A DNA stretch of 63,700 nt, counting the filler, from an uncultured Methanosarcinales archaeon (GTDB lineage: Archaea; Nanobdellota; Nanobdellia; Woesearchaeales; UBA12501): the NCBI GenBank assembly GCA_964397315.1. It is 4 parts of 4 records of this genome, joined end to end, with 100 filler letters (N's around TTAATTAATTAA, not from the genome) between each part and the next. Parts side by side here need not be neighbours in the genome. Positions count along the whole stretch, not along the records: positions 38,714 to 56,984 come from CAYNHV010000026.1; 3 more parts are not named here. One strand, given 5' to 3'. The position numbers and the translations under genes are program-made. Below the pieces are notes generated by a model, which was not told where the DNA came from, ran no database searches, and was given only the letters and a program-made list of their open reading frames with translations. Each line of letters begins with the position of its first letter. Positions within the stretch are counted from its first letter, which is position 1. This document shows positions 38,614 through 56,929 of this stretch, piece by piece.

Positions 38614-38713
38614 NNNNNNNNNNNNNNNNNNNNNNNNNNNNNNNNNNNNNNNNNNNNTTAATTAATTAANNNNNNNNNNNNNNNNNNNNNNNNNNNNNNN
38701 NNNNNNNNNNNNN
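38614..38713. other. artificial contig linker
   Basis: N + TTAATTAATTAA + N. Confidence 0.98.
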
Positions 38714-38872
38714 TGGTGATAGAGAATACAAATCAAAGAAAAAACTCAAAAATCAGCTAAACAAATACTTAAATTTTACTATTTTTTTGTAATATTTTTC
38801 ATATTTTTGGAGATAAATTTAAATTTATATAAACATACAATATTTAGAGACCATTATTAGTGGGTGGTATAA

Positions 38873-39346: not shown

Positions 39347-39369
39347 AGTATTAAAGTAAAATAATCTTC

Positions 39370-40668
39370 TCAAGAATCAACATATTCAATTATCCTGTTT
39401 TTTATTGTGTTGAAGGTCCATTCAAACTTTTCATCGTCTGTCTCCAGCAGCGTTATCCTGAATCCCTCATGGGGGCAGTCAAAGCTTGTAAGCGGCACAA
39501 CGCATATTCCTGTTGCCCCCAGCAGATTGTAGACAAACCTTGTGTCATTGGCAGTCCCTTCTGTTATCTTCTCAACATAATCCCTTGTCTTGCTGTTGTC
39601 TATGCAAAGCCTCTGGTCCTGATTAAGAACCCCCTCCCTGAACATCACAGTCATGTAGAACGCCCCTTCTGCCTTGTGTGCTATGATATCATCTATGCCT
39701 CCGAGGATATCAGCTGCCTTTTGAGCCCTCTGCCTGAAATTCTCGTTTCTTTGTGATATGTGCTCCCTGTACCTCGGATCCCCCATGACATCAGGGATGA
39801 CCATCTGGGGGTGTGTTGTTGAGCATACTTCCAGCCTTTTCTTCTCAAGTATCTGTTTAGTGTAATCCCTGAACGCGCTGTCGCCGGAAAGATTGTATGA
39901 CTCCACCCAGCCGCTCCTTGCTCCCGGCCAGGGCCATTCCTTTGAAATGCCTTTCATTGACATTCCAGGAACACCCCTTATTATATCGCTCAATGGAACA
40001 GCTGGCTCTCCATTGTACGTGAGGTTCATGTATATCTCGTCAAATATGAGGAACTGATCAAATTCCTCTGCAAGGTCAACAATCTCCTCAAGAACTTCTC
40101 TGGGATAAACCGCTCCTGTAGGGTTGTTGGGGTTTATCACCAGTATGCCTGATATGTCCTTTACATAAGTGAGATTGTTCCTGAGTTCTTTAAGGTCAGG
40201 GTGCCACTTGTTCTCCGGATCAAGAGGGTAAGTTATTGTGTCGCTTGCAGCATGCGCTGCTTCAGCAGATGAATGTGTTGAGTAGGCGGGTGAAGGCCCA
40301 ATGACTCTTACTGAAGGGGACAGCAGGCTGTAGACCTTGCTTATGGAGTCTCCAACGCCGTTGAAGAAAAGGACATCCTCAGGGTTTACATGAGCTCCCC
40401 CTCTCTGGTTTGTAAGCTCAGCAAGAAATTCTCTTGTCCTCTCCACGCCCCTGGTGGGGCAGTACCCATAAGCTTCATCATGATCAAGGGCTGATTTTAT
40501 TATGTGCTTCATCCACTCAGGAAGCTTTTCTCCCTTAGTCACTGGATCGCCTATATTCTCCCAAGTGATGGGAATCCCCATTGATGCAAACTTTTCTGCA
40601 ACATCAACTATCGCCCTTATCTCATAATGCTGTTTCTCAGCCCCTGCGTTCAGCAAATCCTTTCTCAT
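39370..40668 (-). CDS. class I/II PLP aminotransferase (AlaT-like)
   Basis: NIGDP, INPNNPTG, DEIY, SKEWPWPGARSGW. Confidence 0.9.
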   Translation of the reverse strand: MRKDLLNAGAEKQHYEIRAIVDVAEKFASMGIPITWENIGDPVTKGEKLPEWMKHIIKSALDHDEAYGYCPTRGVERTREFLAELTNQRGGAHVNPEDVLFFNGVGDSISKVYSLLSPSVRVIGPSPAYSTHSSAEAAHAASDTITYPLDPENKWHPDLKELRNNLTYVKDISGILVINPNNPTGAVYPREVLEEIVDLAEEFDQFLIFDEIYMNLTYNGEPAVPLSDIIRGVPGMSMKGISKEWPWPGARSGWVESYNLSGDSAFRDYTKQILEKKRLEVCSTTHPQMVIPDVMGDPRYREHISQRNENFRQRAQKAADILGGIDDIIAHKAEGAFYMTVMFREGVLNQDQRLCIDNSKTRDYVEKITEGTANDTRFVYNLLGATGICVVPLTSFDCPHEGFRITLLETDDEKFEWTFNTIKNRIIEYVDS

Positions 40669-40969
40669 GAGAGTGCGCTATTACAAATCATTTATTAAGT
40701 TTACTATTGCGCAATGAGAACCTAAAAGTGTGGGTTGGTGGTTGAAGGGTTCTATCCCATAAATCCCCTGATCCTTGCGGCATGGGTTATGAGCTCCCTC
40801 AGCTGTGTACTGTTCGCTCTCAGCTCTTCTGTTATACGGCCTGTCACGCTATTGTGCTCCTTCTCAGGCTCAAAGTCAAAAGGAACCTCAATTATCGTGA
40901 GGAGCATGAGAGGCAACATCAATTCCATCAAAACATTTATAAATGAACTGCTGGTTTTTTCACTCTTAA

Positions 40970-41105
40970 GCCTCTGTGGCTTAGCGGTAGAGCAGCCGAC
41001 TTGTAGCCGGCCTTAAGCACTGCTGAGGTTGTGACAGGTTATCGGCAGGTCGGGGGTTCAAAAAACCACGCCCAAGGGCTGGTTGTGAAAGTCCCCCCAG
41101 AGGCT
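40970..41105 (+). tRNA. tRNA-Thr(UGU) with two introns (37/38: 41006-41040; 59/60: 41063-41091)
   Basis: Acceptor GCCTCTG/CAGAGGC, anticodon arm GCCGA-CTTGTA..A-TCGGC, T arm GGGGG-TTCAAA|T-CCCCC with BHB pairing TTCA/TGAA. Confidence 0.9.
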
Positions 41106-41154
41106 TCCAATATTTTAACAGGAATCATTAACTGCAGGGAGCTGCACTGTAAAC

Positions 41155-41616
41155 ATGGAACCCAAGGAAGAGTACAGCAGGATAAGGAAGAAGCATTCCC
41201 TTCCCGAGCTTGAGGAGCTCCAGAGGACCTTCAGCTTCGGAAAGCTGGACAGCGACGAGCCAGTGCTTGCTGGAATAAGGAAGAGGATAGATGAGAAGAC
41301 GGATCTCATGCTCAAGATACTCAACAGGATACTCCAGCCTGAGACAACAATAGCAGAGATGAATGAGTGCAGGGAGTTCAGCGAGGCTGACAAAAAGAGA
41401 ATATTTGAGCTCTACAAGAGGATAATGATAATACACAACTACCTTCTCATGCTGGAGGTGGACAGGGATGAGAAGGCAGAGGCTGAGTTCATCAGCAGCG
41501 CTTTTAAGAAGTGGCCCTCAATAAAGCAAGAGATAAAGTCCATCATAAGCAAGATGAGAGACTCCTGGCAGAAAGAAGTGGAAGACCTGAAGGAGGATGT
41601 GGGATATGTTGGATAA
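41155..41616 (+). CDS. conserved hypothetical protein
   Basis: KHSLP..EL, ILQPE, W..IK, C-terminal YVG; overlaps adk. Confidence 0.75.
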   Translation: MEPKEEYSRIRKKHSLPELEELQRTFSFGKLDSDEPVLAGIRKRIDEKTDLMLKILNRILQPETTIAEMNECREFSEADKKRIFELYKRIMIIHNYLLMLEVDRDEKAEAEFISSAFKKWPSIKQEIKSIISKMRDSWQKEVEDLKEDVGYVG

Positions 41617-42256
41617 ATCAAAAGGAAGGAGGCTTGTGTTTATGGGCCCTCCGGGAACAGGCAAGGGCACCCAGGCAGAGCTCGCTGAAAAAGAGTATGG
41701 CATACCTCATGTCTCAACAGGGGACATGTTCAGGGAGATTCAGAAAGAGGATACAGAGCTCGGAAGAAAGGTAAGGGAGGTAATAGGAAAAGGCGGTTTC
41801 ATGCCTGATGAGGTTACTGTGGAGATAGTCAGGCAGAGGCTTGGGAAGGATGACTGCAAAAAAGGGTTTATACTTGACGGCTTTCCCAGGACAGTCTCCC
41901 AGGCAGAGGCTCTTGAGGGAATAACAGATATTGACAATGTAATCTTCATATCATCCTCAGATGATGTCATAATAAAAAGGCTCAGCTCAAGGAGGCAGTG
42001 CAGCAAGTGCGGGGCAATATACGGCATTGAGAATCCTCCCAAAAAGGTTGGTGTCTGCGACAAGTGCGGCGGAGAGCTCTACCAGAGGGATGATGACATG
42101 GAGGAAACAATAAAAAAGAGGCTTGATGAATACAGGAGCAAGACAGCCCCTCTTATTGAGCATTACAGGAAAAAGGGAATTCTTCATGAGATAAACGGGG
42201 AGCAGCCCATAGATGACATCTTTAAGGACATAAAGCAGGCCATTGAAGAAGAATAA
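41606..42256 (+). CDS. adk: adenylate kinase (bacterial-type, Zn-lid)
   Basis: GPPGTGKGTQA, STGDMFR, LDGFPRT, CxxC..CxxC lid, QRDDD. Confidence 0.95.
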   Translation: MLDKSKGRRLVFMGPPGTGKGTQAELAEKEYGIPHVSTGDMFREIQKEDTELGRKVREVIGKGGFMPDEVTVEIVRQRLGKDDCKKGFILDGFPRTVSQAEALEGITDIDNVIFISSSDDVIIKRLSSRRQCSKCGAIYGIENPPKKVGVCDKCGGELYQRDDDMEETIKKRLDEYRSKTAPLIEHYRKKGILHEINGEQPIDDIFKDIKQAIEEE

Positions 42257-42299
42257 GCTGGTTTCTTAAAAACTGCACCATAAGCACCGGGGAGAAAGC

Positions 42300-43229
42300 T
42301 CACTCAAGCATCTGCCTTACTGCCTCTGTGGCATAGCATCCTTTTGGAAGGAAAAAGCTGATCCTGTAAGAGCCCTCTCCGATGTCCTCTATCCGCAGGC
42401 CTTCAGGCTCTGCAAAAAGCTGCCTCTCACAGCCCTCAAGGCTCATCTCAGGCATCTCCCTTATTATGAAATCCCTTTCTGTAACTCCCTCCTTCTCAAG
42501 AATATCCTTTACTATTGACTTAACTGCATCATCCTTGTATTCAGTTGCAAAGCCCACAAGAGGTATTGCAATGTTGGCACCCTCTCTGTTCTGCTTAACA
42601 TGCATTTCAGCTGTCCTGTTCCACAGCAGTGACTGGTAGGAGTGCAGGTACATCATGAGGGTTCTTCTGGGCATGCTTCTCAGCGCGCCTATGCAGTCAT
42701 TCTTGTGCTCTTTGAGGTGGCATTCAGCTCTCTTGTTGTCAGCCAGCGCTGCCGCTTTCCTGAAATCACCCTTTATGATTGCCTTTCCCACTTCTGCATT
42801 GTTCCTGCTGAACCTCTGCTCTCCGAAATAATTAACAAACCTGCTTATCCTCTCAGGCTTTTTTTCAGCATTCCTGACTATTATCTCAAAATCATTGCCC
42901 TCAAGGTCGCCAAGGCTTACAGGAGAGCCGCATTTTCCCAGGAACTCCACATCCATATTCGCGGCAGAGAGGCTCTCCAGCTTTTTCCTGAAATCCCCTT
43001 TGACAGACATCACCTGCTCGGCAACTGCAGCCCTGTCTTTTGCGCCTGCAAAGCCCACATCTCCTGAGGGAATTCCAAGGTGAGCTGCAATGGCCTCAGC
43101 AGCCTCCATTGTTGTGAGATTTCTCTTCCTGACGCGGATGTAAGAGTAACTCCCGCTTGCTTTTGGCTCTGCCAGGCTCCTCTCCCTCACTATAAAATCC
43201 TCGGGCCTTTGTTTTATCACGTAATCCAT
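42300..43229 (-). CDS. truD: tRNA pseudouridine(13) synthase
   Basis: PEDFIVRE, AGAKDRAA, NYFGEQRF, LPKGCYAT; start trimmed to MDYV. Confidence 0.92.
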   Translation of the reverse strand: MDYVIKQRPEDFIVRERSLAEPKASGSYSYIRVRKRNLTTMEAAEAIAAHLGIPSGDVGFAGAKDRAAVAEQVMSVKGDFRKKLESLSAANMDVEFLGKCGSPVSLGDLEGNDFEIIVRNAEKKPERISRFVNYFGEQRFSRNNAEVGKAIIKGDFRKAAALADNKRAECHLKEHKNDCIGALRSMPRRTLMMYLHSYQSLLWNRTAEMHVKQNREGANIAIPLVGFATEYKDDAVKSIVKDILEKEGVTERDFIIREMPEMSLEGCERQLFAEPEGLRIEDIGEGSYRISFFLPKGCYATEAVRQMLE

Positions 43230-43316
43230 CTTCCCACCTGCAATCTTACCCCTGATATCTGCGGAAAACAAAAAGAATTAAAAAATCTTTGTTATTCTTT
43301 TTAATATTAGGGCATA

Positions 43317-44492
43317 ATGGCAGTAAATAAGGAATTAAAAAAGGCTTATAGCATAGCAAAAAGGGACTTGAGAAGGTGCTATACAGGAAAGGGCATACTC
43401 GCGGGAAGGAGAAGGTTTGACGACTACTGGGCGAGAGACTCGTTCTTTGCTTCAATAGGGGCGCTGCGCATCGGAGACAAGGACAGGGCGAAAAAGAACT
43501 TCAGGCTGTTCCTGAAATACCAGAACAGGAAAGGCCAGCTTCCAAGGAGGATTGACCGCTACCATGTATGGCTTAAATACATTGGGATTCCGATAAAAAG
43601 GAAAAAGCTCAGGCCCAGGTACACGACATCTCTCATGTACTGCTTCTCTGTGGACCAGAACTCCCTGTTCATAATCGCGCTGTCAGATTACCTGATGGCA
43701 ACAGGTGATAAAGAATTTATCAAAGAGATATACAAAAAGGCAAAGAAAGCAATGGACTGGAACTTCTCCAATGACAGGACAAGGGATTACCTTCTTGAGG
43801 AGGGGTTCTTCGCAAACTGGGAGGACACAATATTCTGGAGAGGTCAGCTTCTCTACACTAATGTGCTTCACTGCTGGGCCCTGAAATGCTTTGCAGAGCT
43901 GAGCAAAGCAGCAGGCTTTGGAGAGGGTAGGGCTTACCTCAGCATGCACAGGAAGGTGAGGAAAAAGATAAACAGCTACTTCTGGAACGGAAAATATTAT
44001 GAGAAGAGCATGAAAAGAAAATCAAGATTCTTTCCCGTGGATGCGAACATGCTGGCAATAGCATCAGGAATAGCTGACAGGAACAAGGCAATGAAAATAC
44101 TCAAGTACATGCGCGGCAAAGGCATTGACAAGGAAACCCCCCTGAGGAGCAGCTATCCAGGATACCCTCTCTGGAGAAACTCGCCCCAGAGGCTCTTTAC
44201 CCTCACCACAGGATACCACAACACATATGGGTGGGTGTGGATAAGCTGCGCGTCAATACTGGCCATGCACAGGCTTGGCATGAAGAAAAAGGCAGCAGAA
44301 TGCCTTGAAAAGCTCAGCAGAAAGATAACAGAGTTTGACGGCGTCTATGAGGTATATGCAGGAGGCAGGCCTGTTGAGAGCTTGTTCCTGACTTCAGAAT
44401 GGCCCTTTGCCTGGAGCGCAGGAATGTTCATATACACATGCGAAAAGGTGATTGGAAAGGCAAAAACAAAAACCTATAAAAATAGGCTTTAA
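43317..44492 (+). CDS. six-hairpin glycoside hydrolase-like protein (amylo-alpha-1,6-glucosidase-like)
   Basis: YWARDS, WEDT, YHN..W, EVY, FAWSAG. Confidence 0.75.
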   Translation: MAVNKELKKAYSIAKRDLRRCYTGKGILAGRRRFDDYWARDSFFASIGALRIGDKDRAKKNFRLFLKYQNRKGQLPRRIDRYHVWLKYIGIPIKRKKLRPRYTTSLMYCFSVDQNSLFIIALSDYLMATGDKEFIKEIYKKAKKAMDWNFSNDRTRDYLLEEGFFANWEDTIFWRGQLLYTNVLHCWALKCFAELSKAAGFGEGRAYLSMHRKVRKKINSYFWNGKYYEKSMKRKSRFFPVDANMLAIASGIADRNKAMKILKYMRGKGIDKETPLRSSYPGYPLWRNSPQRLFTLTTGYHNTYGWVWISCASILAMHRLGMKKKAAECLEKLSRKITEFDGVYEVYAGGRPVESLFLTSEWPFAWSAGMFIYTCEKVIGKAKTKTYKNRL

Positions 44493-44507
44493 AACAGATA
44501 TTTTCAA

Positions 44508-44524
44508 GGGCCAGTAGCCTAGCC
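44508..44524 (+). repeat. duplicate of the first 17 nt of tRNA-Arg
   Basis: GGGCCAGTAGCCTAGCC at 44508 and 44603, both preceded by TTTCAA. Confidence 0.9.
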
Positions 44525-44602
44525 GTGGGAGCTGGTTACGCTCAGCTCGCACGCAATAGGCGGCTCCTAGTTGCTGACGCAACCGGAGCCTCACTTTCAA
44601 AA

Positions 44603-44755
44603 GGGCCAGTAGCCTAGCCTGGATAGGGCAACAGCCTCCTAATGAACAGAGTCTAGTCCTTCAGAACTCTGTTCTGAAGCAAGCTGTAGGTCGAGGGTTC
44701 GAACAGCCAATGCCTCTCTCATGAGAGCAGGGCTTCGGAAGTCCCTCCTGGCCCG
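44603..44755 (+). tRNA. tRNA-Arg(CCU) with two introns (37/38: 44642-44681; 59/60: 44704-44741)
   Basis: Acceptor GGGCCAG/CTGGCCC, anticodon arm ACAGC-CTCCTA..A-GCTGT, T arm GAGGG-TTCGAA|T-CCCTC. Confidence 0.9.
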
Positions 44756-44786
44756 TATTCAACCCCCAGCTTAATAGCATGCAAAA

Positions 44787-45890
44787 ATGTTCAGGCCCAT
44801 ACACCTTAAAGAAGCAATGAGGATATTCAGGAGGTCCCTTTCTGCAAGGCATAATGGAACAAGGAGGTACAGCGGCAGTGCAGAGGAGATCTGCAGGAAG
44901 ATAATATCTGACTGCTGGAATGAAAAGGAAGGCTATTTCCGGACAAGCACAGGCCACTTCTCTGAATTCTACACAAGGGATTTTGCCTTCTGCATTGAGG
45001 CGCTGCTGAAGCTTGGATTCAGAAAAAAGGTCAGGCTCACGCTTGAGTATGCCCTGAAAAGATTCTCACAGAGCGGCAGAATTGCAACGGCAATCTCTCC
45101 TGAAGGCAGGCCTTTTGACTTTCCTGCCTACGCGTCTGACTCCCTGCCCCTGCTGGTGCGCTCGCTTGTCAGGGCTGACGCTGGAGGCCTCATCAGGAAG
45201 CACGAGTCCCTCATTGTTAATGAAATAAACAGGTATTACCATGTTGTTTTTGATTCCCGCACGTCAATGGTGAGGAAGAACAAGCACTTTTCCTCAATAA
45301 AGGACTGGGCCAAAAGAAGCTCCTCATGTTATGACAACTGCATGCTCGCAATGCTCAGGAACGATCTTGAAAAGCTGGGTTTCTACAATCCATTCCATGA
45401 GCATGACATCAGGAAGAGGATAAAGGATGAGCTGTGGAGCGGAAAGTTCTTCTATGATGACATGAGAAAAAAAGATATTGTTTCAGGAGACGCCAATGTT
45501 TTCCCGTTCTGGACTGGAGTGTTCAGTAAGAGAAACATGAGGAAATCCTGCATAAGGCAGATGCAGAAGGCAAAGCTGGACAGGCCATTCCCCCTCAAGT
45601 ACACAAACACGAGAAAAGGCCAGAGGTTCCTTTTTTCAGAGATTCTTGTGAGGAATTATGAGGGCACTGCAGTGTGGCCCCACCTCGGCATGTGCTATGT
45701 TGACGTGGTCAGAAAGCACAGCAAAAAGGAAGCTGAAAGATACATTAAGAGATACAGGAAGCTCATTGAGAAGCACCGCAACTTTCTTGAGGTGTTTGAG
45801 GAGGACGGCAGGCCATTCAAGAGGCTGTTCTACTACACAGACGAGGGCATGCTCTGGGCTGCCAAGTATCTGGGGCTGGGCGGTCAGTGA
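44787..45890 (+). CDS. six-hairpin glycoside hydrolase-like protein
   Basis: FYTRD, GDANVFP, YEGTAVW, FLEVF, MLWAA; distant paralog of 43317-44492. Confidence 0.65.
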   Translation: MFRPIHLKEAMRIFRRSLSARHNGTRRYSGSAEEICRKIISDCWNEKEGYFRTSTGHFSEFYTRDFAFCIEALLKLGFRKKVRLTLEYALKRFSQSGRIATAISPEGRPFDFPAYASDSLPLLVRSLVRADAGGLIRKHESLIVNEINRYYHVVFDSRTSMVRKNKHFSSIKDWAKRSSSCYDNCMLAMLRNDLEKLGFYNPFHEHDIRKRIKDELWSGKFFYDDMRKKDIVSGDANVFPFWTGVFSKRNMRKSCIRQMQKAKLDRPFPLKYTNTRKGQRFLFSEILVRNYEGTAVWPHLGMCYVDVVRKHSKKEAERYIKRYRKLIEKHRNFLEVFEEDGRPFKRLFYYTDEGMLWAAKYLGLGGQ

Positions 45891-45909
45891 GTGACTACCC
45901 CGAGATTAA

Positions 45910-45923
45910 GAAAATTTTATATA
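45910..45923 (+). promoter_or_regulatory. archaeal BRE/TATA promoter of the sigma-70 fusion gene
   Basis: GAAAA-TTTTATATA about 23 bp before ATG 45946, leaderless spacing like other genes in the window. Confidence 0.6.
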
Positions 45924-45945
45924 ATATTCTCTGGAATCGGCTGTT

Positions 45946-48900
45946 ATGGCAAGGGGGTATGTGGAAGGGGGATGGTTTACACCTTCTGAAATAGCTGATA
46001 TTACCGGAAAGAAGCCTCAAGAGATAAAGTCTTCTCTGGAGGAGCTTGCAGACAGCGGACTTGAGATTTTATCAAGGCGTAATCCTTCTTCCAAGATGCA
46101 GCAACATTCAGAGCCGCAAGGCTTAGAATGGCAGTATTTCATAACAAAAAAGCATATCCCCTATCTTTCAGGCAACAGAGGATTCCCTGAAAAAAGATTA
46201 AACGTAAAAATACCTGCTAGGGAATATAATCAGCTCCTGGGTGATAATTCGGACAGGGAAAACTATAATACTGCTGCAGAGCCAGACATCAGTACTCCTG
46301 ATAAAATTAAAAGACTTGGAGAAAAGGCATTGGCTGACTATTGGGAATATCATGCTGGCAAGACTAGAGGTCAGATTCCTCCTAATCTACACAAAAGACT
46401 TAATAAATATGGGAAATTGCACGAGATTCCAAAATTTGATTATGAAAAACGCAGAAAACTTAAGGGGGAAGAAGCTCTTTCTGAGTACAGGGAAAATTAT
46501 AATGGTATGGCAAGAGGCCAGCTTCCTGCCGCCCTGTTGGAAAGATTAAGAATGTATGGGCAGTTAGACAAGATTCCAAGAAGAGATGATGAAGAAACAA
46601 TAAGGAAGATGGGTGAGGAAGCTCTTGCCGAGTGGAGAGAAAAATATAGTGATAAGACGAGAGGCCAGCTTCCGTCTCGTTTATATCATAGGCTTAAGAG
46701 GTCCGGGCAATTGGATAGGGTTCCGAGAAGAGATGATGAAAAAACAACAAAAGAGATAGGGGGGGAAGCTCTTGCTGAGTATTGGGAGAATCATGTTGGC
46801 AAGACTAGGGGCCAGCTTCCAAAATGTTTGTACAACCGGCTTAAAAGATCTGGACAATTGGATAAGGTTCCGAGAAGAGATGATGAAAAAACAACAAAAG
46901 AGATAGGGGGGGAAGCTCTTGCTGAGTATTGGGAAAATCATGCTGGCAAGACTAGGGGCCAGCTTCCATCTGATCTATATAGAAGGCTCAGAAGGTATGG
47001 TCTGTTGGGTGAGATCCCCACACTAGATCGTGAGGAGCGGAGGAGGATTATGGGTGAAGAGGCTCTTGCTGAGTATTGGGAGAATCATGTTGGCAAGACT
47101 AGAGGTCAGCTTCCAAAATGTTTGTACAACCGGCTTAAAAGAGCCGGACAGTTGGATAATCTACCTGGTGGTCATGGCAAAAAAAGGGAGGAAAAACAGC
47201 CAGAAACCACTGTTCATGAAACTTTCCAGGAAATACCTCCAAGTGGATATAAAAAACCACGTCGCAGAAAGTCATCATCAAAAAAGGTCAATCCAGAGGT
47301 GCAGGCTGAGATCTCCAAGGCAAAACAAGGGGCTGGAGCTGAGATGTATGCGAATCTTGACAGGGCTGCATTGGACCTGAGGTACAGGCACAATATCTTT
47401 ATATCAGAGAAGGAGCTGGAGGAGATTGTGGAGAAATACAGCCTCTACACAGAGGGAAGCGAGAGTGAAGTGCTGTTCAGCACAACAATTGACGCGGCTG
47501 TCAGTGGAGGTTTGTTCAACCAGTACAAGCCGAAAATCCAGAACAGCGAGGGGCATCCAGAAGAGAGTGATGAAAAAAATCATTATTCTGAAAAAAAGAA
47601 GCCGGAACAAAGCAGGAAAGAAAAGAAAGCCGGACAAAAGAAGCTTGCAGCAGAAGATGATGAAGACAGTGAAGAAGGCCTGGAATTAATTATTGAAGAA
47701 GGGGGGATTCTCTTTGATGACCCCTACAACCTGGATGAAGCGAAGTTGAAAGGCAGGGATGATGAAACCGATTCCCGCTTCAAAGACAATGTTCTATTTA
47801 AATATCTCAGGGAGATGGAATCTTACAGCCTTCTGACATCTGAGGAGGAGATAGAGCTCGGAAGGGGCATGCGCGAGGTTACATCAGACATAGCAGGAAT
47901 CATGTTCAGCCAGGAAAAATTCTTCTCAAATTATATAAATATGGTCTCTGACGAGAATCATGGCCTTGAGCATTTAAGCGCTGTAATGCCTGACAAGGAC
48001 TATGAGAAGACAAAGGGTTATCTCATGTCAGCAGCAAGAAAGGTTATTGAAGAAAACAAGCTTGATGATGTTGAAAAAAAGGACGTCCCTCCAGGGCTGT
48101 TATCTGAGACAGACCATGAGGGAAACAGTCTCTACAGGATTTACAAGGACATACTCACCGCGAGAAAAGGATTAAAGAAGTTCAAGTCAAAAAAAGCAAG
48201 AAAAGATGTGCTTGACGAGCTTGGTTTTGAGTCAGTGGAGCATATTGATGATTTCCTGGGCAGTCTTGAGCCGCTCTTTGAGCAGTACAGGAGTATGTTT
48301 GACAGGTTCTTCACCAGCAACCTGAGGCTTGTTGCAAAGATTGCCAATAAATACCGCAATAAAGATATACCTGTGACTGACCTCATCCAGGAGGGCAACA
48401 TTGGTCTTGCCAGGGCAGTTGGGAAGTTTGACTACAGGATGGGTTACAAGTTCTCCAGCTATGCGACATGGTGGATACACCAGAGCATAATAAGGTCTCT
48501 GGCTGAGAATTCAAGAACAATAAGATTGCCGGTCTACCTCTCAGAAAAGATAAAAAGGATTGTCAAGGCAGAATCAGAAATTTTCAAAGAGAGTGGAAAA
48601 AAGCCGACAGCAGAGGAGATAGCAGAACATGTTAACATGGAACCTGCAGAGGCTGCTGCGTACATGAATATAAACAGGCAAACACATCCGCTTTCGCTCC
48701 ACATGCCTGTTGGAAAATATGAAGACACCCCTCTGGAGAATCTCTTGGGTGATGAAACAACAGACCCTCCTGATGAGGATGTTGATAAAGGATTATTAAA
48801 AGAGATCATAGAAGAGAATCTTGAGAAGCTCTCTCCAAGACAGGAGAAGATATTGAAGATGAGATTCGGGATTGATGAGAGCCATGACCACACTCTGGAG

Positions 48901-49017
48901 GAGATAGGAGAGCAGTTCAAGCTGAGCAGGGAGAGAATAAGGCAGATAATAGACAAGGCATTAAAGAAACTCAGGCACCCGTCAGTATCAAGTATGCTAA
49001 GGCCTTACAATGAGTGA
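45946..49017 (+). CDS. RpoD-like sigma-70 factor fused to N-terminal HTH and six 49-aa repeats
   Basis: Region 1.2 YLREM..LLTSEEEIEL; region 2 NLRLVAKIA..DLIQEGNIGL..KFDYRMGYKFSSYATWWI; RTIRLPV; region 4 LSPRQEKILKMRFG..TLEEIGEQFKLSRERIRQI. Confidence 0.93.
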   Translation: MARGYVEGGWFTPSEIADITGKKPQEIKSSLEELADSGLEILSRRNPSSKMQQHSEPQGLEWQYFITKKHIPYLSGNRGFPEKRLNVKIPAREYNQLLGDNSDRENYNTAAEPDISTPDKIKRLGEKALADYWEYHAGKTRGQIPPNLHKRLNKYGKLHEIPKFDYEKRRKLKGEEALSEYRENYNGMARGQLPAALLERLRMYGQLDKIPRRDDEETIRKMGEEALAEWREKYSDKTRGQLPSRLYHRLKRSGQLDRVPRRDDEKTTKEIGGEALAEYWENHVGKTRGQLPKCLYNRLKRSGQLDKVPRRDDEKTTKEIGGEALAEYWENHAGKTRGQLPSDLYRRLRRYGLLGEIPTLDREERRRIMGEEALAEYWENHVGKTRGQLPKCLYNRLKRAGQLDNLPGGHGKKREEKQPETTVHETFQEIPPSGYKKPRRRKSSSKKVNPEVQAEISKAKQGAGAEMYANLDRAALDLRYRHNIFISEKELEEIVEKYSLYTEGSESEVLFSTTIDAAVSGGLFNQYKPKIQNSEGHPEESDEKNHYSEKKKPEQSRKEKKAGQKKLAAEDDEDSEEGLELIIEEGGILFDDPYNLDEAKLKGRDDETDSRFKDNVLFKYLREMESYSLLTSEEEIELGRGMREVTSDIAGIMFSQEKFFSNYINMVSDENHGLEHLSAVMPDKDYEKTKGYLMSAARKVIEENKLDDVEKKDVPPGLLSETDHEGNSLYRIYKDILTARKGLKKFKSKKARKDVLDELGFESVEHIDDFLGSLEPLFEQYRSMFDRFFTSNLRLVAKIANKYRNKDIPVTDLIQEGNIGLARAVGKFDYRMGYKFSSYATWWIHQSIIRSLAENSRTIRLPVYLSEKIKRIVKAESEIFKESGKKPTAEEIAEHVNMEPAEAAAYMNINRQTHPLSLHMPVGKYEDTPLENLLGDETTDPPDEDVDKGLLKEIIEENLEKLSPRQEKILKMRFGIDESHDHTLEEIGEQFKLSRERIRQIIDKALKKLRHPSVSSMLRPYNE
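46315..47169 (+). repeat. six tandem 147-bp (49-aa) coding repeats
   Basis: Consensus GEEALAEYWENHxGKTRGQLPxxLYxRLxRxGxLDxIP; unit starts 46315 through 47050 at 147-bp steps. Confidence 0.92.
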
Positions 49018-49020
49018 GGC

Positions 49021-50439
49021 CTACAACACCCTCTTCAGCATCTCCACAACCTTCCTCGGGTCAGCCCGGCCCTTCAGCTTTCCCATTGCAATGCCAATAA
49101 GGGCCTTCTCAGGCTTTCCCTTGTTCTCAGCCACAATCCTCCTGAGCTCCTTCTCCAGCTCCCTGTCAGGCATCATCTCGTATTTTGAGAGGTCAAGCTT
49201 TCCTGTCCTGCCCAGCTCAGCCATCATGTTATAGACAGAGTCCTTGGCTATCTTTCCCTTGTTAAGCTCCGCGAATATCTTTTCAAGGTCAGAGTCTGAC
49301 AGGGAGACATCAATGCCCTCCTTTCTTTTGATTGTTTTTGGCGTTGATATTATCGTTTCCGCGATGAATGAAGGCTTGACATTGCTGAACCTGCGCGCGA
49401 GGCCTGCTATGAGGTCAGCCTTTCCTTCCTTTGCTGCTGCATCAGCAAGATCATCCCCCAGCCCGAGCTTCTTCAGCTTGCCTGCCTTCTCCTCTATCAG
49501 CTCAATCTTCTCTGCCTTGACATCGCCCGGATTTATCAGGGGCACATCTGTCTCAGGGTACATTCTTGCCGCGCCTGGCATGGGCCTCAGGTATGAGGTT
49601 GTGAAGTCAGGCTCTGCCTTTCTCACCTCAGGCTTCATCTTCCTGCCCTTCTTTGACTCTGAGAGCTGCCTTTTTATCTCATTGCCAATCACCTTTGGTA
49701 TTGACCTGTAATCCTGGAATCCCTTTATCTCAACCCTGGGGCAGCCTTTTATTGACATGTTAACGTCCTGCCTTATTGAGCCTATGCCCCTCTTCATTCC
49801 AGGCACGCTCCTCAGTATCATTCCGAGCTTTGCGGCTGCGCTCCTGCACTCCTCGGGTGTTGTCATGTCAGGCCCTGTCGCGATCTCTATGAGGGGTATG
49901 CCCAGCCTTGTGAGGTTATAAACATCACACTCCTTCCCCCTCTCTATTATCTGGCACGCCTCCTCCTCAAGGCAGACAGTGGGTATTGAGACTTTCTTTC
50001 CCTCCACTTCAATAAGCCCGTCCCTGCCTATCAATGCTGTCCTCTGGAATCCTGACGTGTTGCTTCCGTCAATGACTGTCTTCCTCATGAACTGTATCTC
50101 ATCCACGATCCTGCAGTTGAGAAGTCGCGCTGCCTGAAGGGCTGTCTTGAGCGCTTCCTCATTAACCGGATGGGGGGGCTCCTCGTCAAGCTCCACAAGG
50201 CAGGTTATGTCCCTGTAGCCCTGGTAGACAAAGCGCTTCTTTTTCTTCTGCTCATGCGCTGCTGCAACATCCACCTCTCCTGTCTCTCCTGCAGAGGCCC
50301 TGAGCTCCCTTTCAACACTGAAGTGGGGGTTCTCCTTTCTAATCACAGTCGGACAAGCGCAGAAAAGCTTCTTTCCCTCAAGCTGCTGGTGGATTTCAAG
50401 CCCGCACCTGAGACCAAGCTTTGAATAGTCTGCTGCCAT
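49021..50439 (-). CDS. gatE: Glu-tRNA(Gln) amidotransferase subunit E (short form)
   Basis: GLEIHQQL, DEEPPH, IDGSNTSGFQRT, PGAARMYPETD. Confidence 0.93.
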   Translation of the reverse strand: MAADYSKLGLRCGLEIHQQLEGKKLFCACPTVIRKENPHFSVERELRASAGETGEVDVAAAHEQKKKKRFVYQGYRDITCLVELDEEPPHPVNEEALKTALQAARLLNCRIVDEIQFMRKTVIDGSNTSGFQRTALIGRDGLIEVEGKKVSIPTVCLEEEACQIIERGKECDVYNLTRLGIPLIEIATGPDMTTPEECRSAAAKLGMILRSVPGMKRGIGSIRQDVNMSIKGCPRVEIKGFQDYRSIPKVIGNEIKRQLSESKKGRKMKPEVRKAEPDFTTSYLRPMPGAARMYPETDVPLINPGDVKAEKIELIEEKAGKLKKLGLGDDLADAAAKEGKADLIAGLARRFSNVKPSFIAETIISTPKTIKRKEGIDVSLSDSDLEKIFAELNKGKIAKDSVYNMMAELGRTGKLDLSKYEMMPDRELEKELRRIVAENKGKPEKALIGIAMGKLKGRADPRKVVEMLKRVL

Positions 50440-50534
50440 ACCATCTGCCAGAACACGCCACTATTTAAATATTTAGGAAAACAATCTTTATATATGAGGC
50501 CTCTACATAAAGCGTGAGAGGAGGCATAACAATC

Positions 50535-51698
50535 ATGCAGGGAATATCAAAAAGGACAGCAGGAATCTCGCCAAGCGCAACTCTTGCCATAACAGCAAAA
50601 GCAAAGCAGATGAAAAAGGACGGCAGCGATGTTGTGGGCCTAGGTGCAGGAGAGCCTGACTTTGAGACTCCTGATAACATAAGGGAGGCTGCAAAGAAAG
50701 CCATTGACCAGGGCTTCACAAGGTACACCCCTGCCTCAGGCATTCCCGAGCTGAAGCAGGCTGTCTGCAGAAAGCTCGCAAGGGAAAATAATGTTGGGTA
50801 TTATCCTGAAGAGGTTGCGGTATCCTGCGGAGGAAAGCACTCCCTGTACAATGTGATGGAGGCTCTTCTTGACCATGGTGACGAGGCATTGCTTCCATCC
50901 CCCTACTGGGTGAGTTATGAAGAGCAGATAAGGATAGCTGGAGCAAAGCCTGTCATGATTGACACGTCACCCTCTGAATTCAGGCTCACTGCAGAAGCTG
51001 TTGAGAATGCAGTTACAGGAAAAACAAAGCTGCTTATACTTAACTCGCCATCAAACCCTGCAGGAATGATTATTGACAGGAAAGAGCTGGAGGCGATTGC
51101 AGAGCTTGCAGTGAGAAAGGGATTCTATGTTGTGTCTGACGAGGTTTATGAAAAGCTTGTCTACAAGGGAAAGAGGCATGTCAGCATCGCATCTCTCGGA
51201 GAGGGCATAAAAGAGAGGGCCATAACAGTCAATGCAGTGTCAAAAACATACTCAATGACAGGCTGGAGGATAGGTTACTGCGCAGGGCCTGCTGAGATAA
51301 TCAAGGCAGTCTCAAACCTCCAGAGCCACTCAACATCAAACCCCTGCTCAATAGCGCAGAAGGCTGCTGTTGAGGCCCTGACAGGCCCTCAGGACTTCCT
51401 GAAAAAATGGGTTGAGGAGTTTGACAAAAGGAGGAAGCTGATGGTGGAAATGCTGAACAGCATGAGGAACATAAGCTGCACTGATCCTGACGGCGCGTTC
51501 TATGCATTCCCTGACATAAACTCCACAGGATTGAGCTCAATTGAGTTTGCGGAAAGGCTGCTTGAGGAAGAGAAGGTGGCTGTTGTCCCCGGAGCTGCAT
51601 TCGGCGCGGACAATAATGTCAGGCTCAGCTATGCGGCATCATCAGAGGAGATAAAAAAAGGGCTTGAGAGGATGGAGAGGTTCTGCAGCTCATTATGA
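50535..51698 (+). CDS. aspartate aminotransferase (class I)
   Basis: GEPDF, YTPASG, NSPSNP, SDEVY, SKTYSMTGWRIG. Confidence 0.9.
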   Translation: MQGISKRTAGISPSATLAITAKAKQMKKDGSDVVGLGAGEPDFETPDNIREAAKKAIDQGFTRYTPASGIPELKQAVCRKLARENNVGYYPEEVAVSCGGKHSLYNVMEALLDHGDEALLPSPYWVSYEEQIRIAGAKPVMIDTSPSEFRLTAEAVENAVTGKTKLLILNSPSNPAGMIIDRKELEAIAELAVRKGFYVVSDEVYEKLVYKGKRHVSIASLGEGIKERAITVNAVSKTYSMTGWRIGYCAGPAEIIKAVSNLQSHSTSNPCSIAQKAAVEALTGPQDFLKKWVEEFDKRRKLMVEMLNSMRNISCTDPDGAFYAFPDINSTGLSSIEFAERLLEEEKVAVVPGAAFGADNNVRLSYAASSEEIKKGLERMERFCSSL

Positions 51699-51714
51699 AA
51701 AGGAGGATGGTACC

Positions 51715-52644
51715 ATGAAAGTAAGCATTATAGGCGCGGGAAACGTGGGAGCCTCAGCAGCATGGGTGATCTGCGACAGGCAGATGGCTGACGAGGTTGT
51801 TCTTGTTGACATTGTTGAGGGAGTCCCTCAGGGAAAGGCCCTTGACATACTTGAGGCAATGCCCCTCTCAAAAAGCAACACCAGGATAAAAGGCACCAAC
51901 AGCTACGAGGGCATAGAAGGCTCAGATATTGTTGTTGTCACGGCAGGTGTTCCGAGAAAGCCGGGCATGTCAAGGGACGACCTTCTTGAGACCAACTCAA
52001 AAATAATAAGGTCAATAGCTGCCGAGATAAAGGTCCGCGCCCCCAACTCGGTTGTCATAGTGGTGACAAACCCCCTTGACGCGATGGCATACCTCATGCT
52101 TAAGGAGACCGGCTTTGAAAGGGAGAGGGTTATTGGAATGGCTGGGGTGCTTGACTCCACAAGGTTCAGGACATTCATCGCAGACATGCTTGACATCGGA
52201 GTTGGAGAAGTGGAGGCCATGGTTCTTGGAGGCCACGGCGACTCCATGGTTCCCCTGAGAAAGCACACCACCATAAAGGGAAAGCCGCTGTCGGATTTCA
52301 TTGAAGAGAGCGACATGGAATCTCTTATTGAAAGGACAAGAAAAGGGGGTGCGGAGATTGTGGGATACCTCAAGACAGGCTCTGCATTCTATGCTCCTGC
52401 AGCGTCAATAGCAGAGATGGTTGACGCCATCTCAAAAGAGGACGGCAGGCTGCTTCCCTGCTCTGTCATGCTGAAGGGAGAGTACGGCCATGAGGGGATA
52501 TTCCTTGGAGTTCCATGCAGGCTTAACAGGAAAGGCCTGAATGAGGTTGTTGAGCTGGAGCTGTCAGGGGATGAAAAGAAACAGCTTGACGAGAGCGCGG
52601 GAAATGTTAATGAATTAACAGAAAAAGTTAATGCAGAAAGCTAA
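51715..52644 (+). CDS. mdh: malate dehydrogenase (LDH-like)
   Basis: GAGNVG, PRKPGMSRDDL, VTNPLD, LGGHGD. Confidence 0.93.
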   Translation: MKVSIIGAGNVGASAAWVICDRQMADEVVLVDIVEGVPQGKALDILEAMPLSKSNTRIKGTNSYEGIEGSDIVVVTAGVPRKPGMSRDDLLETNSKIIRSIAAEIKVRAPNSVVIVVTNPLDAMAYLMLKETGFERERVIGMAGVLDSTRFRTFIADMLDIGVGEVEAMVLGGHGDSMVPLRKHTTIKGKPLSDFIEESDMESLIERTRKGGAEIVGYLKTGSAFYAPAASIAEMVDAISKEDGRLLPCSVMLKGEYGHEGIFLGVPCRLNRKGLNEVVELELSGDEKKQLDESAGNVNELTEKVNAES

Positions 52645-52646
52645 CA

Positions 52647-53645
52647 TCATCCCCTTCCCCTCACAAGCCCTTCTGTTTCCTCAAATCCGAGCATTATGTT
52701 CATGTTCTGCACAGCCTGGCCTGATGCCCCTTTCAGGAGATTGTCAATTGTTGAGATGACCACAAGCCTCTTGCTCTCGTCAGACTCAAATCCGCCTAGG
52801 GTACACATGCTGCTGTTCTGCGTGCTTCTCATCTCAGGCGCGGATTCCTCAACCCTTACAAGGGGGTGGCTGCTGTAATAATCCCTGTAAACCCTCTCTG
52901 CCTCGTCCCTGCTTATGCTGCTGTCCAGCATAATGTGGGCTGTGCACATCATGCCCCTGAAGGTGTCAATCACATGAGGGGTGAATGAGGTATTGCTGAT
53001 GAACTGCTCTATCTCGTACTTGTGCCTGTGCCTTGCGAGCTTGTAGGCTATAAGGTTGTCCTTTATCACAGAGGGGTCCCTCGCGTAGACTGATTCCTTT
53101 CCCGCCCCGCTCCAGCCTGACTTGCAGTCAAAGATAATACGCCCTGCCCTCTCCCTGAGGGGAAGCGCTGCCAGAAGGCAGGCTGTGGAGTAACAGCCGG
53201 GGTTTGCGACAAGCTGCGCATTTTTTATCTCATTCCTGAACATCTCAGGCAGGCCGTACACAGCTTCGCTCCTGCCGTCATGCTTTATGCCATAGACTTC
53301 CTCAAATTTTTTCGCGTCTTTGAACCTGTAGTCCGCGCTAAGGTCTATGACTCTTGTATTTTCCAGGTTCAGCTGAGGCACTGTTTTCAGCGCGACTCCT
53401 GAGGGTGTTGCCAGGAATATGGCATCAAGCTCCATGCTGTTTATCTCCTCAACAGAGTGGTTTGTGAACTTCAGATTGTCATCATTGAAATCATTGTATA
53501 ATGATGAGACCCTCTCTCCCTCGTGCTTTCTTGAGTTCAGCACAACAAGCTCTGCGTTCTTGTGGCCTGAGATGAGCTTTATCAGTTCATACCCTGCATA
53601 GCCTGAAGCGCCTATTATCCCTGCTTTTGCTTTGCTGTTATTCAT
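52647..53645 (-). CDS. argC: N-acetyl-gamma-glutamyl-phosphate reductase
   Basis: GASGYAG, DLSADYR, ANPGCY, DNLLKGASGQAVQN. Confidence 0.95.
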   Translation of the reverse strand: MNNSKAKAGIIGASGYAGYELIKLISGHKNAELVVLNSRKHEGERVSSLYNDFNDDNLKFTNHSVEEINSMELDAIFLATPSGVALKTVPQLNLENTRVIDLSADYRFKDAKKFEEVYGIKHDGRSEAVYGLPEMFRNEIKNAQLVANPGCYSTACLLAALPLRERAGRIIFDCKSGWSGAGKESVYARDPSVIKDNLIAYKLARHRHKYEIEQFISNTSFTPHVIDTFRGMMCTAHIMLDSSISRDEAERVYRDYYSSHPLVRVEESAPEMRSTQNSSMCTLGGFESDESKRLVVISTIDNLLKGASGQAVQNMNIMLGFEETEGLVRGRG

Positions 53646-53646
53646 G

Positions 53647-54837
53647 CTATGCACCCTTCCCGTTGTGTTTGCCAACAATATTGCTTATTATCCTAAGTGC
53701 CCTGTCAACATCTTTTCTTGTTATCATGAGAGGCGGAAGGAATCTTATCACATTGTCAGATGTGCAGACGCACAGGAGGCCGCTGCTGACAAGCTTATTT
53801 ACTGTTTCGCTGCACTGCTCTTTCATCTCTATGCCTATCATCAGGCCCCTGCCCCTGACCTCCCTTATCCGGTCAGGGTTTATTCTCCTGAGCTTTTTCA
53901 TGAAGTAATCCCCCTGCCTGGCCGCGTTCTTCATCAGGCCGTTCTTCTCCATGAACTCAATGACAGCAAGCGCTGCAGCGCAGCTTAGGTTGTTGCCTCC
54001 GAATGTGCTGCCGTGATCCCCGCAGGCGAATGAGGATGACACATTCTTCCCTGCTATGGTAACCCCTATGGGCACTCCGTTGGCAAGGCCCTTTGCCATT
54101 GTCACCATATCAGGCTTTATCCCCTCATGCTGGTATGCAAAGAACTTCCCTGTCCTGCCCATTCCGCTCTGCACCTCGTCAATTATGAGCAAAGCCCCCT
54201 TTTTCCTGCATATCTCTGAAACTCTTTTGAGGAACCCCCTGTCAGGCATGGTTATTCCTGCCTCTCCCTGTATGGGCTCTGCGATCACTGCAGCTGTCTT
54301 TTTCGTGACAGACTTCTCAAGAGCCTTTGCATCATTGTAAGGCACCTGCCTGAATCCAGGGGCCATGGGCCTGAACTGCTTCTTGATATTCTCCTTTCCT
54401 GTCGCTGCCAGGCTTCCCAGCGTTCTTCCATGGAATCCGTGCCTGAAGGATATTATTTCCTTCCTGCCTGTGTGCTTTCTCGCCAGCTTTATGGCTGCCT
54501 CATTAGCCTCTGCGCCTGAGTTTGAGAAGAAGCACATTCCCCCTCCATAATAGGATGAGAGCTTTGCTGCCAGTCTCGCCTGCGGCTCTGAGTAGAACAG
54601 GCAGGTGGTGTTTATTATACTTTTTGCAGCCTCGTTTATCGCCCTGCACACCATGCTGTTGGCGTGGCCGACAGTGCAGGTGGCTATGCCTCCGAGAAAG
54701 TCAAGGTATTTTCTTCCTTCTGTATCATACACATAAGCTCCTTTCCCCCTTGTGATCACAGGGTCAAACCTGCTGTAAACAGGCATCATGTGCTTCTTCT
54801 CTGTCCTTTTTACCTCTTCCGGCCTCATGGTGTTCAA
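53647..54837 (-). CDS. argD: acetylornithine aminotransferase
   Basis: NSGAEANEAA, FHGRT, EPIQGE, DEVQSG, HGSTFGGN. Confidence 0.93.
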   Translation of the reverse strand: MNTMRPEEVKRTEKKHMMPVYSRFDPVITRGKGAYVYDTEGRKYLDFLGGIATCTVGHANSMVCRAINEAAKSIINTTCLFYSEPQARLAAKLSSYYGGGMCFFSNSGAEANEAAIKLARKHTGRKEIISFRHGFHGRTLGSLAATGKENIKKQFRPMAPGFRQVPYNDAKALEKSVTKKTAAVIAEPIQGEAGITMPDRGFLKRVSEICRKKGALLIIDEVQSGMGRTGKFFAYQHEGIKPDMVTMAKGLANGVPIGVTIAGKNVSSSFACGDHGSTFGGNNLSCAAALAVIEFMEKNGLMKNAARQGDYFMKKLRRINPDRIREVRGRGLMIGIEMKEQCSETVNKLVSSGLLCVCTSDNVIRFLPPLMITRKDVDRALRIISNIVGKHNGKGA

Positions 54838-54854
54838 ATCTTCCTTTCTTCCGC

Positions 54855-56876: not shown

Positions 56877-56929
56877 TCCCCGGCTGGAATAAAGGTTTGT
56901 TTATAAAGGTTGCTGTGTGAGAATTAAAT

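Follow-up and report, generated by a model that had tools for sequence, protein, structure and literature searches.

Results

The stretch of DNA analysed here (the window) comprises 63,700 nucleotides (nt) from four contigs of one draft genome (GenBank assembly GCA_964397315.1), deposited as an uncultured Methanosarcinales archaeon and placed by GTDB in the Woesearchaeales (UBA12501), and features on its different pieces are linked by binning only. The pieces are separated by six-frame-stop linkers of the form N44-TTAATTAATTAA-N44 at positions 19336-19435, 38614-38713 and 56985-57084. The third piece (38714-56984, 18,271 bp, CAYNHV010000026.1) carries in its middle, at 7.2-10.3 kb, a gene encoding a sigma-70-family protein, here called P0001, at 45946..49017 on the + strand. 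In the protein collection, the contig of P0001 is listed with this same length of 18,271 bp. The gene begins with ATG and is uninterrupted over 3069 nt, giving a protein of 1023 amino acids (aa). Sigma-70 proteins are known as bacterial initiation factors; archaeal transcription starts with TBP, TFB and TFE.

The C-terminal 400 aa of P0001 carry sigma regions 1.2, 2, 3 and 4, all above the Pfam gathering cut-offs, which bears out the initial annotation of these regions in an archaeal chromosome. On the + strand, Sigma70_r1_2 (PF00140) covers residues 620-644 (47803..47877, 27.4 bits against a cut-off of 22), Sigma70_r2 (PF04542) residues 789-858 (48310..48519, 64.7 bits against 24), Sigma70_r3 (PF04539) residues 867-943 (48544..48774, 54.3 bits against 25.3) and Sigma70_r4 (PF04545), with its -35-type helix, residues 959-1011 (48820..48978, 61.8 bits against 24.1). 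The motifs reported earlier are present in the same form, namely DLIQEGNIGL at residues 812-821 (the core-binding helix), YATWW at 839-843, WWIHQSII at 842-849 and SRERIRQI at 994-1001. The sigma superfamily model TIGR02937 gives 128.9 bits (cut-off 42.9), placing the protein in the sigma-70 family, and residues 780-1021 match solved RpoD/SigA chains with E values of 1e-55 to 6e-68 at about 45-50% identity. The earlier description of P0001 as a complete RpoD-type factor holds for regions 1.2 to 4 but not for the rest of the protein. Region 1.1 (PF03979), which most bacterial matches carry, has no match in P0001, either in the whole protein at E<=0.01 or in N-terminal pieces at E<=10, and the scores stay below the RpoD equivalog cut-offs (312.4 against 555 bits for NF004208 and 269.3 against 354 for the C-terminal model TIGR02393), as they do for all other RpoD models of NCBIfam. 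The Pfam scan likewise gives no match to the known non-essential region (PF04546). P0001 is RpoD-like and not an RpoD orthologue. It has no hydrophobic or signal-like segment (maximum Kyte-Doolittle value 0.77 in a 19-aa window) and is therefore taken to be a cytoplasmic protein.

A promoter of archaeal type lies at 45908..45925 (+), where a purine-rich AAGAAAA resembling the B recognition element (BRE) is followed by TTTATATA at 45916-45923. This TATA box, also seen in the initial annotation, stands 30 nt ahead of the sigma ATG, a spacing that implies a leaderless or near-leaderless sigma mRNA. Boxes like TTTATATA (at least 7 of 8 matches) are found 27-36 nt ahead of the start codon in 12 of the 49 open reading frames (ORFs) of the window, the sigma gene included. 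On the sigma contig they precede sigma (-30), gatE (-30), an aspartate aminotransferase gene (-27) and argJ (-31), and the boxed ORFs window-wide include those at 4988-6133, 11071-13515, 18197-19234, 49021-50439 and 55698-56876. This pattern suggests that the mRNAs of the archaeon are mostly leaderless, and the sigma gene itself is apparently expressed from an archaeal TATA/BRE promoter. Consensus-like -35/-10 pairs number 128 on the four contigs and exceed dinucleotide shuffles on every contig, with 35 against 19.1 +/- 4.7 on the sigma contig. Nearly all of them are intragenic, with only 5 of the 128 ending no more than 60 nt ahead of an ORF start, and they give no sign of bacterial-type promoters in the window; the test is a weak one, as the consensus used is the bacterial one and probably not that of this factor. 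The excess is probably compositional. Among the window ORFs scanned (48 against NCBIfam, 23 against Pfam), no genes for a bacterial RNA polymerase, an anti-sigma factor or Mza partners were found, and these scans reveal no secretion or injection genes beside the sigma gene.

The surroundings of the gene are archaeal. As already described in the initial annotation, the gene lies mid-contig with only 3 bp between its stop codon and the convergent, archaea-specific gatE (49021..50439, -), which encodes subunit E of the archaeal Glu-tRNA(Gln) amidotransferase and is recognised by NF003107 with 508 bits (cut-off 456) and by TIGR00134 with 462.6 bits (cut-off 319.55). An intron-bearing tRNA on the same contig, another element of that annotation, is found 5 kb upstream of the sigma gene as a tRNA-Thr(UGU) with two inserts (40970..41105, +), one at 41006-41040 after position 37 and the other at about 41063-41091 in the T-loop. 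Rfam recognises the acceptor and the 5' part in a partial match that, with 23.7 bits, stays under the gathering score (29); tRNA-Thr(tgt) is called by ARAGORN only once both inserts are cut out in silico, and the fold closes a 7-bp acceptor stem. With the inserts in place, neither ARAGORN (intron mode included) nor Rfam at the gathering score calls any tRNA in the window. Multiple tRNA introns are an archaeal trait. Further archaeal markers lie on the other contigs, including MinD_arch, Trm14, archaeal topoisomerase I, aIF5A and an archaeal RNase P RNA at 4596-4923 (-; RF00373, 108 bits), the last confirming the domain to which the first contig is assigned. No compositional break is seen at the sigma gene: tetranucleotide distances are 1.64-1.75 in the 3-kb windows centred on it and 1.40-2.03 in all six overlapping windows, against a reference median of 1.54 and a 90th percentile of 2.06 (54 windows). 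The guanine-cytosine (GC) content of the gene, 0.44-0.46, is slightly lower than that of its flanks (0.48-0.50). Since archaea-specific genes and signals share its contig, the sigma gene appears, as far as sequence tells, to be an archaeal chromosomal gene and not contamination.

A scan of 1.84 billion representative proteins gave 104,565 matches, only a handful of which (P0004, P0006, P0125 and P0178) align with P0001 from region 1.2 through the insert that follows it to region 4; two further relatives, P0005 and P0270, were taken from a second protein collection. The size of this clade is a lower bound, because an insert-profile search among longer proteins recovered four and missed P0004, P0005 and P0125. 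The clade shares WW(I/V)(H/N)Q where bacteria have WWIRQ, and 12 of the 294 collected proteins carry WW[IV][HN]Q. In a quick tree of 85 cores (every second representative, with P0131 and P0245 left out) all eight labelled WWIHQ rows form one branch, with a stem of 0.99 and a Shimodaira-Hasegawa-like approximate likelihood ratio (SH-aLRT) support of 100. A careful tree of 49 cores, the bootstrap of which was not fully settled, again places all seven labelled rows on one branch (99/91), and the unlabelled, motif-bearing P0245 is their sister at 100/99. The end branch of P0001 is 1.01 against a median of 0.24 in the quick tree. Core identity within the clade is 42-64%, with one close pair at 79%, and the median among bacterial cores is 69%; the region 2-to-4 core of P0001 is at the median 47% identical to bacterial-like cores. 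Regions 2, 3 and 4 are above the Pfam cut-off in all six relatives scanned. Taken from these trees and alignments, the clade appears small, deep and fast-evolving. One of the relatives, P0005 (PIN86629.1), comes from a Candidatus Woesearchaeota genome, where it lies on a 142-kb contig; P0125 and P0245 lie on contigs of 28.7 kb and 82.8 kb. The sigma gene has had time, within archaeal genomes, for divergence to about 45% identity. Closest among the bacterial rows are metagenome-assembled genomes of Proteobacteria and Deltaproteobacteria, the branching of which is unsupported in the tree, and no bacterial donor lineage can be named. A viral origin was also considered and rejected, the best phage match (44.6% identity over 68% of the query) being no closer than bacteria. 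A contig scan with the insert-alignment pattern N[LY]RLV[VA]KIA returned at least 14 loci (L001-L014), with no archaeal locus among the matches listed; these loci are bacterial, mostly from Desulfobacterales, and only their region 1.2 matched, weakly.

Conservation was assessed at the 106 positions with a conservation of 90% or more among 254 bacterial-like cores, with E. coli numbering via the 4jk1_X row, and was counted over seven clade members. P0001 keeps 83 of the 106 positions, among them 21 of 28 in region 2.1-2.2 and 29 of 34 in region 4. Positions kept in all seven members amount to 17 of 28 in region 2.1-2.2, 9 of 20 in region 2.3-2.4, 3 of 15 in region 3.0-3.1, 1 of 9 in region 3.2 and 11 of 34 in region 4, where 27 of 34 are kept in at least five members. 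The region 2.2 residues D403, L404, I405, Q406, E407, G408, N409 and G411, which make up the face for binding the beta-prime clamp helices, are kept in all seven members. So are F427, Y430, W433, W434, Q437 and R441, and Y425 is kept in six; all of these are present in P0001. In the passages of PMC2613000 that deal with these residues, F427, Y430, W433 and W434 are the aromatics of the open complex, and the roles of Q437, R441 and Y425 are taken from the same passages. Changes that run through the clade are S389K (7/7), K392N/H, T429S (6/7), R436H (6/7, N in one), V454I (6/7) and H455Y (7/7), the tyrosine being residue 864 of P0001, just upstream of region 3. T440 is isoleucine in P0001 and in three other members. 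The canonical readers of the -12 position and the extended -10 element, R436, T440 and H455, are therefore H, I and Y in P0001; of the 254 bacterial-like cores, 98% have R436 and 99% have H455. According to passages of PMC2613000, T440I is in E. coli a suppressor of a promoter mutation that puts C:G in place of T:A at -12 and alters the preference at that position, R436 affects duplex binding upstream of -12, and H455 together with E458 reads the extended -10 element. The altered -10 segment pointed out in the initial annotation is thus real, and the change is kept across the clade. The -35 helix (R584, E585, R586, R588, Q589) is intact in P0001 and four other members and changed in P0178 and P0270, in both of which R584, E585 and R588 are altered. 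Because the core-binding and aromatic residues are kept and the -12/-14 readers are changed, the clade has retained the partner-binding and strand-separating parts of a sigma factor and has re-tuned its reading of -12 to -14.

At the N-terminus of P0001, in the place of region 1.1, residues 1-100 (45946..46245, +) are predicted by AlphaFold2 (AF2) to form a winged-helix-like module in the order strand, helix, helix, strand, strand, with predicted local distance difference test scores (pLDDT) of about 75-87; a second AF2 model from a three-row alignment has the same secondary structure (pLDDT 75.5, predicted template modelling score 0.63). BLASTP matches these residues to P0006 at residues 25-110 (E 3e-7) and again, as a second copy at the C-terminus, at residues 685-748 (E 3e-5); the match to P0004 is not significant, though the P0001, P0006 and P0004 sequences align. 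The best Foldseek matches are nearly all winged-helix regulators (MarR, ZitR, CodY, Phr), with a best E of 0.065 and none significant, and the winged helix of TFE-alpha is among them at rank 37 (E 0.44); Pfam gives no match for residues 1-100. Residues 118-412 (46297..47181, +) contain six tandem basic helical repeats of 49 aa, detected by Tandem Repeats Finder with a period of 147 nt, the consensus being GEEALAEYWENHxGKTRGQLPxxLYxRLKRxGQLDxIP. Each unit is modelled as a long helix and a short helix (pLDDT about 80-90), and the array has an isoelectric point of 9.7. Of the 15 pairs of units, 11 have a ratio of nonsynonymous to synonymous substitution rates of 0.18-0.39 and four are saturated at synonymous sites, so that their ratio is not computable; the proportion of synonymous differences is 0.36-0.86, near saturation, with the proteins alike. 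Such synonymous near-saturation with the protein kept argues that the repeat array is old and under purifying selection and is not an assembly stutter. Against the phage family phrog_16553, 'transcriptional repressor', the repeats reach a summed E of 1.4e-10, with no single stretch passing, and they have no homologue and no match in Pfam, the ESM Atlas or Foldseek. The N-terminal 420 aa as a whole have no homologue among proteins of 231-735 aa, no usable ESM Atlas match and nothing significant in Pfam, and Foldseek gives none at E<=0.001 among the best 500 matches listed for each of PDB and BFVD.

Two further segments link P0001 with its clade. Residues of about 448-518 (47287..47499, +) form a module in common with the N-terminus of P0178 (BLASTP, 75 columns at 33% identity, E 2e-8). 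A clade-specific insert of about 145 residues (645-788; 47878..48309, +) separates region 1.2 from region 2 and in the whole-length alignment matches throughout only with P0004, P0005, P0006, P0125, P0178 and P0270. In P0178 a second helix-turn-helix (HTH) follows region 4 and matches HTH_23, HTH_10 and GerE. Judged from these alignments, extra DNA-binding-like parts were gained repeatedly in the clade, with the winged-helix-like module in P0001 and twice in P0006, the HTH in P0178 and the basic repeats in P0001.

Several other features of the window were recorded. The GatE protein is short, with 472 aa against profiles of 622-630 positions, and its profile match is split into two stretches, suggesting that the usual insertion domain may be missing; no gatD adjoins gatE. 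The tRNA-Thr(UGU) is the only tRNA detected in the 63.7 kb. Directly upstream of the sigma gene and on the same strand are two glycoside-hydrolase-like ORFs (43317-44492 and 44787-45890, both +) with weak GH116/GDE_C/MGH1-like matches, the second without a good TATA box of its own. The sigma contig also encodes a bacterial-type adenylate kinase (41597-42256, +; 282 bits against a cut-off of 251), and a bacterial-type DNA gyrase subunit A is encoded elsewhere in the window (11071-13515, -; 1237 bits, above cut-off). Stretches of low GC content (0.30-0.40) at contig ends, 35436-38613 and 57085-61084, have tetranucleotide distances of 2.7-3.65 against the median of 1.54, contain a B12-binding radical SAM gene (37329-38588) and an AAA_14/DUF4143 ATPase gene (57231-58499), and may be foreign islands or assembly break sites. 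Three large ORFs on the - strand (15628-17682, 23847-26543 and 8512-10734), among which are a Lamin-tail domain, bacterial Ig-like domains and a protein of 740 aa without any match, are candidates for surface proteins of the kind discussed for DPANN cell contact.

Discussion

We consider it very probable that the window contains an intact gene for a cytoplasmic sigma-70-family protein, chromosomal in a Woesearchaeota-like DPANN archaeon, under an ordinary archaeal TATA/BRE promoter and belonging to a small, deep and fast-evolving clade derived from bacterial group-1/2 sigma factors. The occurrence of sigma-70 genes in DPANN archaea is already known: Castelle et al. (2021, Front Microbiol, PMC8204110) described such genes as family fam00359 in DPANN genomes, 'particularly prevalent in Woesearchaeota'. 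In the relevant passages of that paper mis-binning is ruled out, no anti-sigma factor is found, the controlling mechanism is called unclear, and the archaeal factors TBP, TFB and TFE are reported. The row for fam00359 in its Table S3 gives 221 sequences, 280 aa and K03086, and the family is present in 38% of genomes of Aenigmarchaeota, 16% of Diapherotrites, 15% of Micrarchaeota and 38% of Pacearchaeota (PMC8204110). These passages of PMC8204110 contain no description of a long architecture like that of P0001, and the full-text literature, subscription papers being outside its scope, yielded no further paper on sigma factors in DPANN archaea. Within the literature searched, a long form that combines region 1.2 with an insert of its own, a winged-helix-like module and repeats is thus undescribed, and so is the pattern of kept and changed residues in its clade. 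P0001 resembles fam00359 in being a sigma-70-type DPANN gene with its nearest named relative also in Woesearchaeota; it differs in having 1023 aa instead of 280, with region 1.2, the insert and the N-terminal extension, a comparison made by the summary row only.

The best-known relatives of P0001 are the RpoD/SigA factors of groups 1 and 2. Like them, P0001 has regions 1.2, 2, 3 and 4 in the same order, is 45-50% identical to the solved chains over regions 2-4, and has region 1.2, the core-binding region 2.2 and the melting aromatics intact. As in many RpoD proteins there is an insert between regions 1.2 and 2, although that of P0001 is unrelated to PF04546. P0001 differs from RpoD/SigA in the absence of region 1.1, in missing the RpoD cut-offs, in R436H, T440I, H455Y, S389K and T429S, and in an N-terminal extension of 600 aa that includes the winged-helix-like module and the six repeats. 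Its host and its promoter are archaeal, and its evolution is several-fold faster.

What does such a protein do in an archaeon? Directly observed are the gene with its domains, context and promoter, and the way in which residues are conserved across the clade. From these we favour, tentatively and with a probability of about 0.38, a role of P0001 as a gene-specific cofactor that binds promoters, melts DNA and docks on the RNA polymerase of the archaeon itself. P0001 would then no longer be a general initiation factor. DNA would be bound by its regions 2-3 and 4, along with the winged-helix-like module and the basic repeats, at a site that resembles a promoter but departs from the bacterial consensus at the upstream edge of -10, and its unchanged region 2.2 would dock on the clamp coiled coil of RNA polymerase. 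The archaeon's own Rpo1N would be the sole docking candidate in this cell, for which reason P0001 would act beside TBP, TFB and TFE and not replace them, the extra DNA-binding modules serving to anchor the cofactor. Because the exposed polymerase-binding and melting residues are kept at about 45% identity, we infer clamp docking and the handling of single-stranded promoter DNA, and the conservation of region 2.2 and of the aromatics would imply a partner of the polymerase type. DNA binding by the N-terminal part, docking on the archaeal polymerase and any effect on transcription are what we further infer from sequence. The role proposed here is like that of TFE-alpha and TFB, which contact promoter DNA and the clamp coiled coil and help the promoter to open; the likeness is in the proposed role only, with no sequence relationship to P0001. 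A table note in PMC7289017 describes sigma-70 as functionally analogous to TBP/TFB.

Several points weigh against a polymerase-docking cofactor. The window covers only 63.7 kb, and a bacterial-type polymerase is possible elsewhere in the genome. To our knowledge the beta flap-tip helix, the partner of region 4 in bacteria, has no archaeal counterpart. Conservation within the clade is lowest in region 3.0 and the 3.2 finger (3 of 15 and 1 of 9 positions kept in all seven members), which would fit a protein no longer reaching the polymerase cleft. The long branches (1.01 for P0001 against a median of 0.24) could reflect relaxed constraint, and the conserved residues of region 2.2 may partly serve the fold and not a partner. 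The fold assignments of the N-terminal part are not significant, and P0005 is the only clade member besides P0001 with a named archaeal source. The predicted complex of sigma region 2 with RPO1N_METJA 200-360, a stand-in for the clamp region, scored 0.00 in two runs, but the fold of the partner was uncertain and the runs were without controls, so that this result speaks neither for nor against binding.

Almost as likely as the docking cofactor, and like it possible at best, is that P0001 acts as a stand-alone DNA-binding regulator, in which domains 2, 3 and 4 would serve as HTH-type readers and bind operators without contact to RNA polymerase. The loss of region 1.1 would lift autoinhibition, and the winged-helix-like module and the repeats would join in DNA binding to activate or repress genes. 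The absence of region 1.1, the accessory HTH-like modules in several clade members, the basic character of the repeat array and the weak conservation of the 3.2 finger and region 3.0 are all consistent with such a regulator, and the alteration of R584, E585 and R588 in the -35 helix of P0178 and P0270 is what would be expected if each protein had its own operator. Archaeal regulators are also mostly bacterial-type HTH proteins. However, the exposed region 2.2 and the aromatics that capture single-stranded DNA are kept in all seven members at about 42-64% identity, which is hard to explain without a partner like the clamp helices and a melting step, and free sigma-70 is a poor promoter binder (abstract of PMC11217687). 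The role of a repurposed regulator, one of the two put forward in the initial annotation, fits the winged-helix-like module and the repeats; the other, an effector, lacks specific support.

Somewhat less probable again is a fuller adaptation, in which a sigma factor of bacterial descent would have become adapted to the archaeal, Pol II-like RNA polymerase, with region 2.2 on the clamp coiled coil of Rpo1N, and would open promoters of a special class, either alongside TFE and TFB or in their place.

It is improbable that P0001 acts on a bacterial RNA polymerase, be it as an effector for a bacterial partner or host or with a bacterial-type polymerase encoded elsewhere in the genome. Such action would account for the presence in P0001 of every known core-binding determinant (21 of 28 positions in region 2.1-2.2 and 29 of 34 in region 4) and for the median identity of 47% between its region 2-4 core and bacterial-like cores. 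P0001 is, however, unlike all 254 bacterial-like cores at R436 and H455, and because these two residues are changed it would not be expected to read standard bacterial promoters. Delivery to a bacterial host, as suggested in the initial annotation, also finds no footing in a protein with no hydrophobic or signal-like segment (maximum Kyte-Doolittle value 0.77), encoded behind an ordinary leaderless promoter of the housekeeping style of gatE and argJ and with no secretion or injection genes beside it. In PMC8204110, moreover, the known hosts of DPANN are archaea, and TBP, TFB and TFE are reported and an anti-sigma factor is not.

We regard as very unlikely that the gene is non-functional in the archaeon, either as a mis-assembled or mis-binned bacterial fragment or as a recent acquisition in decay. 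The window is a set of binned contigs, the GC content of the gene lies slightly below that of its flanks and the branches are long, all of which such an explanation could use. But the ORF is uninterrupted over 3069 nt; gatE is 3 bp away, and the two-intron tRNA and -30 TATA boxes on both sides lie on the same contig; the tetranucleotide distance is in the normal range. The repeats have diverged at synonymous sites with the protein conserved, the clade is conserved and includes a relative on a 142-kb Woesearchaeota contig, and mis-binning is ruled out for the family in the passages of PMC8204110. Least credible of all is an MzaA-like sigma factor of the MZA anti-phage defence system: MzaA is also a long sigma-70 protein with an N-terminal extension, its NCBIfam profile NF041931 aligns from region 1.2 to the end of P0001 (residues 606-1022, 289.9 bits) and PADLOC MzaA gives 186.8 bits, but the former score is far under the curated cut-off of 800, the PADLOC match spans only regions 2-4, common to all sigma-70 proteins, and the context is a different one, without partner genes, the two upstream neighbours having no PADLOC match and the other neighbours being gatE and metabolic genes.

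In summary, archaea start transcription with their own factors, and a conserved archaeal sigma factor is for that reason a protein without a textbook job. The passages of PMC8204110 propose no function or mechanism beyond 'unclear', and although prior publication blunts the surprise of finding a sigma gene in such a genome, the gene remains a good handle on this open question. It offers a well-defined test case, being intact and in a clearly archaeal context, with the polymerase-binding and melting residues kept, the promoter-reading residues changed and extra DNA-binding-like modules added. If P0001 binds DNA alone, it would show a route from a general factor to an ordinary regulator. Docking on the archaeal polymerase would demonstrate that a Pol II-like enzyme can accept a bacterial initiation factor as a graft, and if P0001 is adapted to that polymerase, the clade would represent a natural cross-domain hybrid initiation system, which would provide a handle on the interchangeability of sigma with TFB and TFE.

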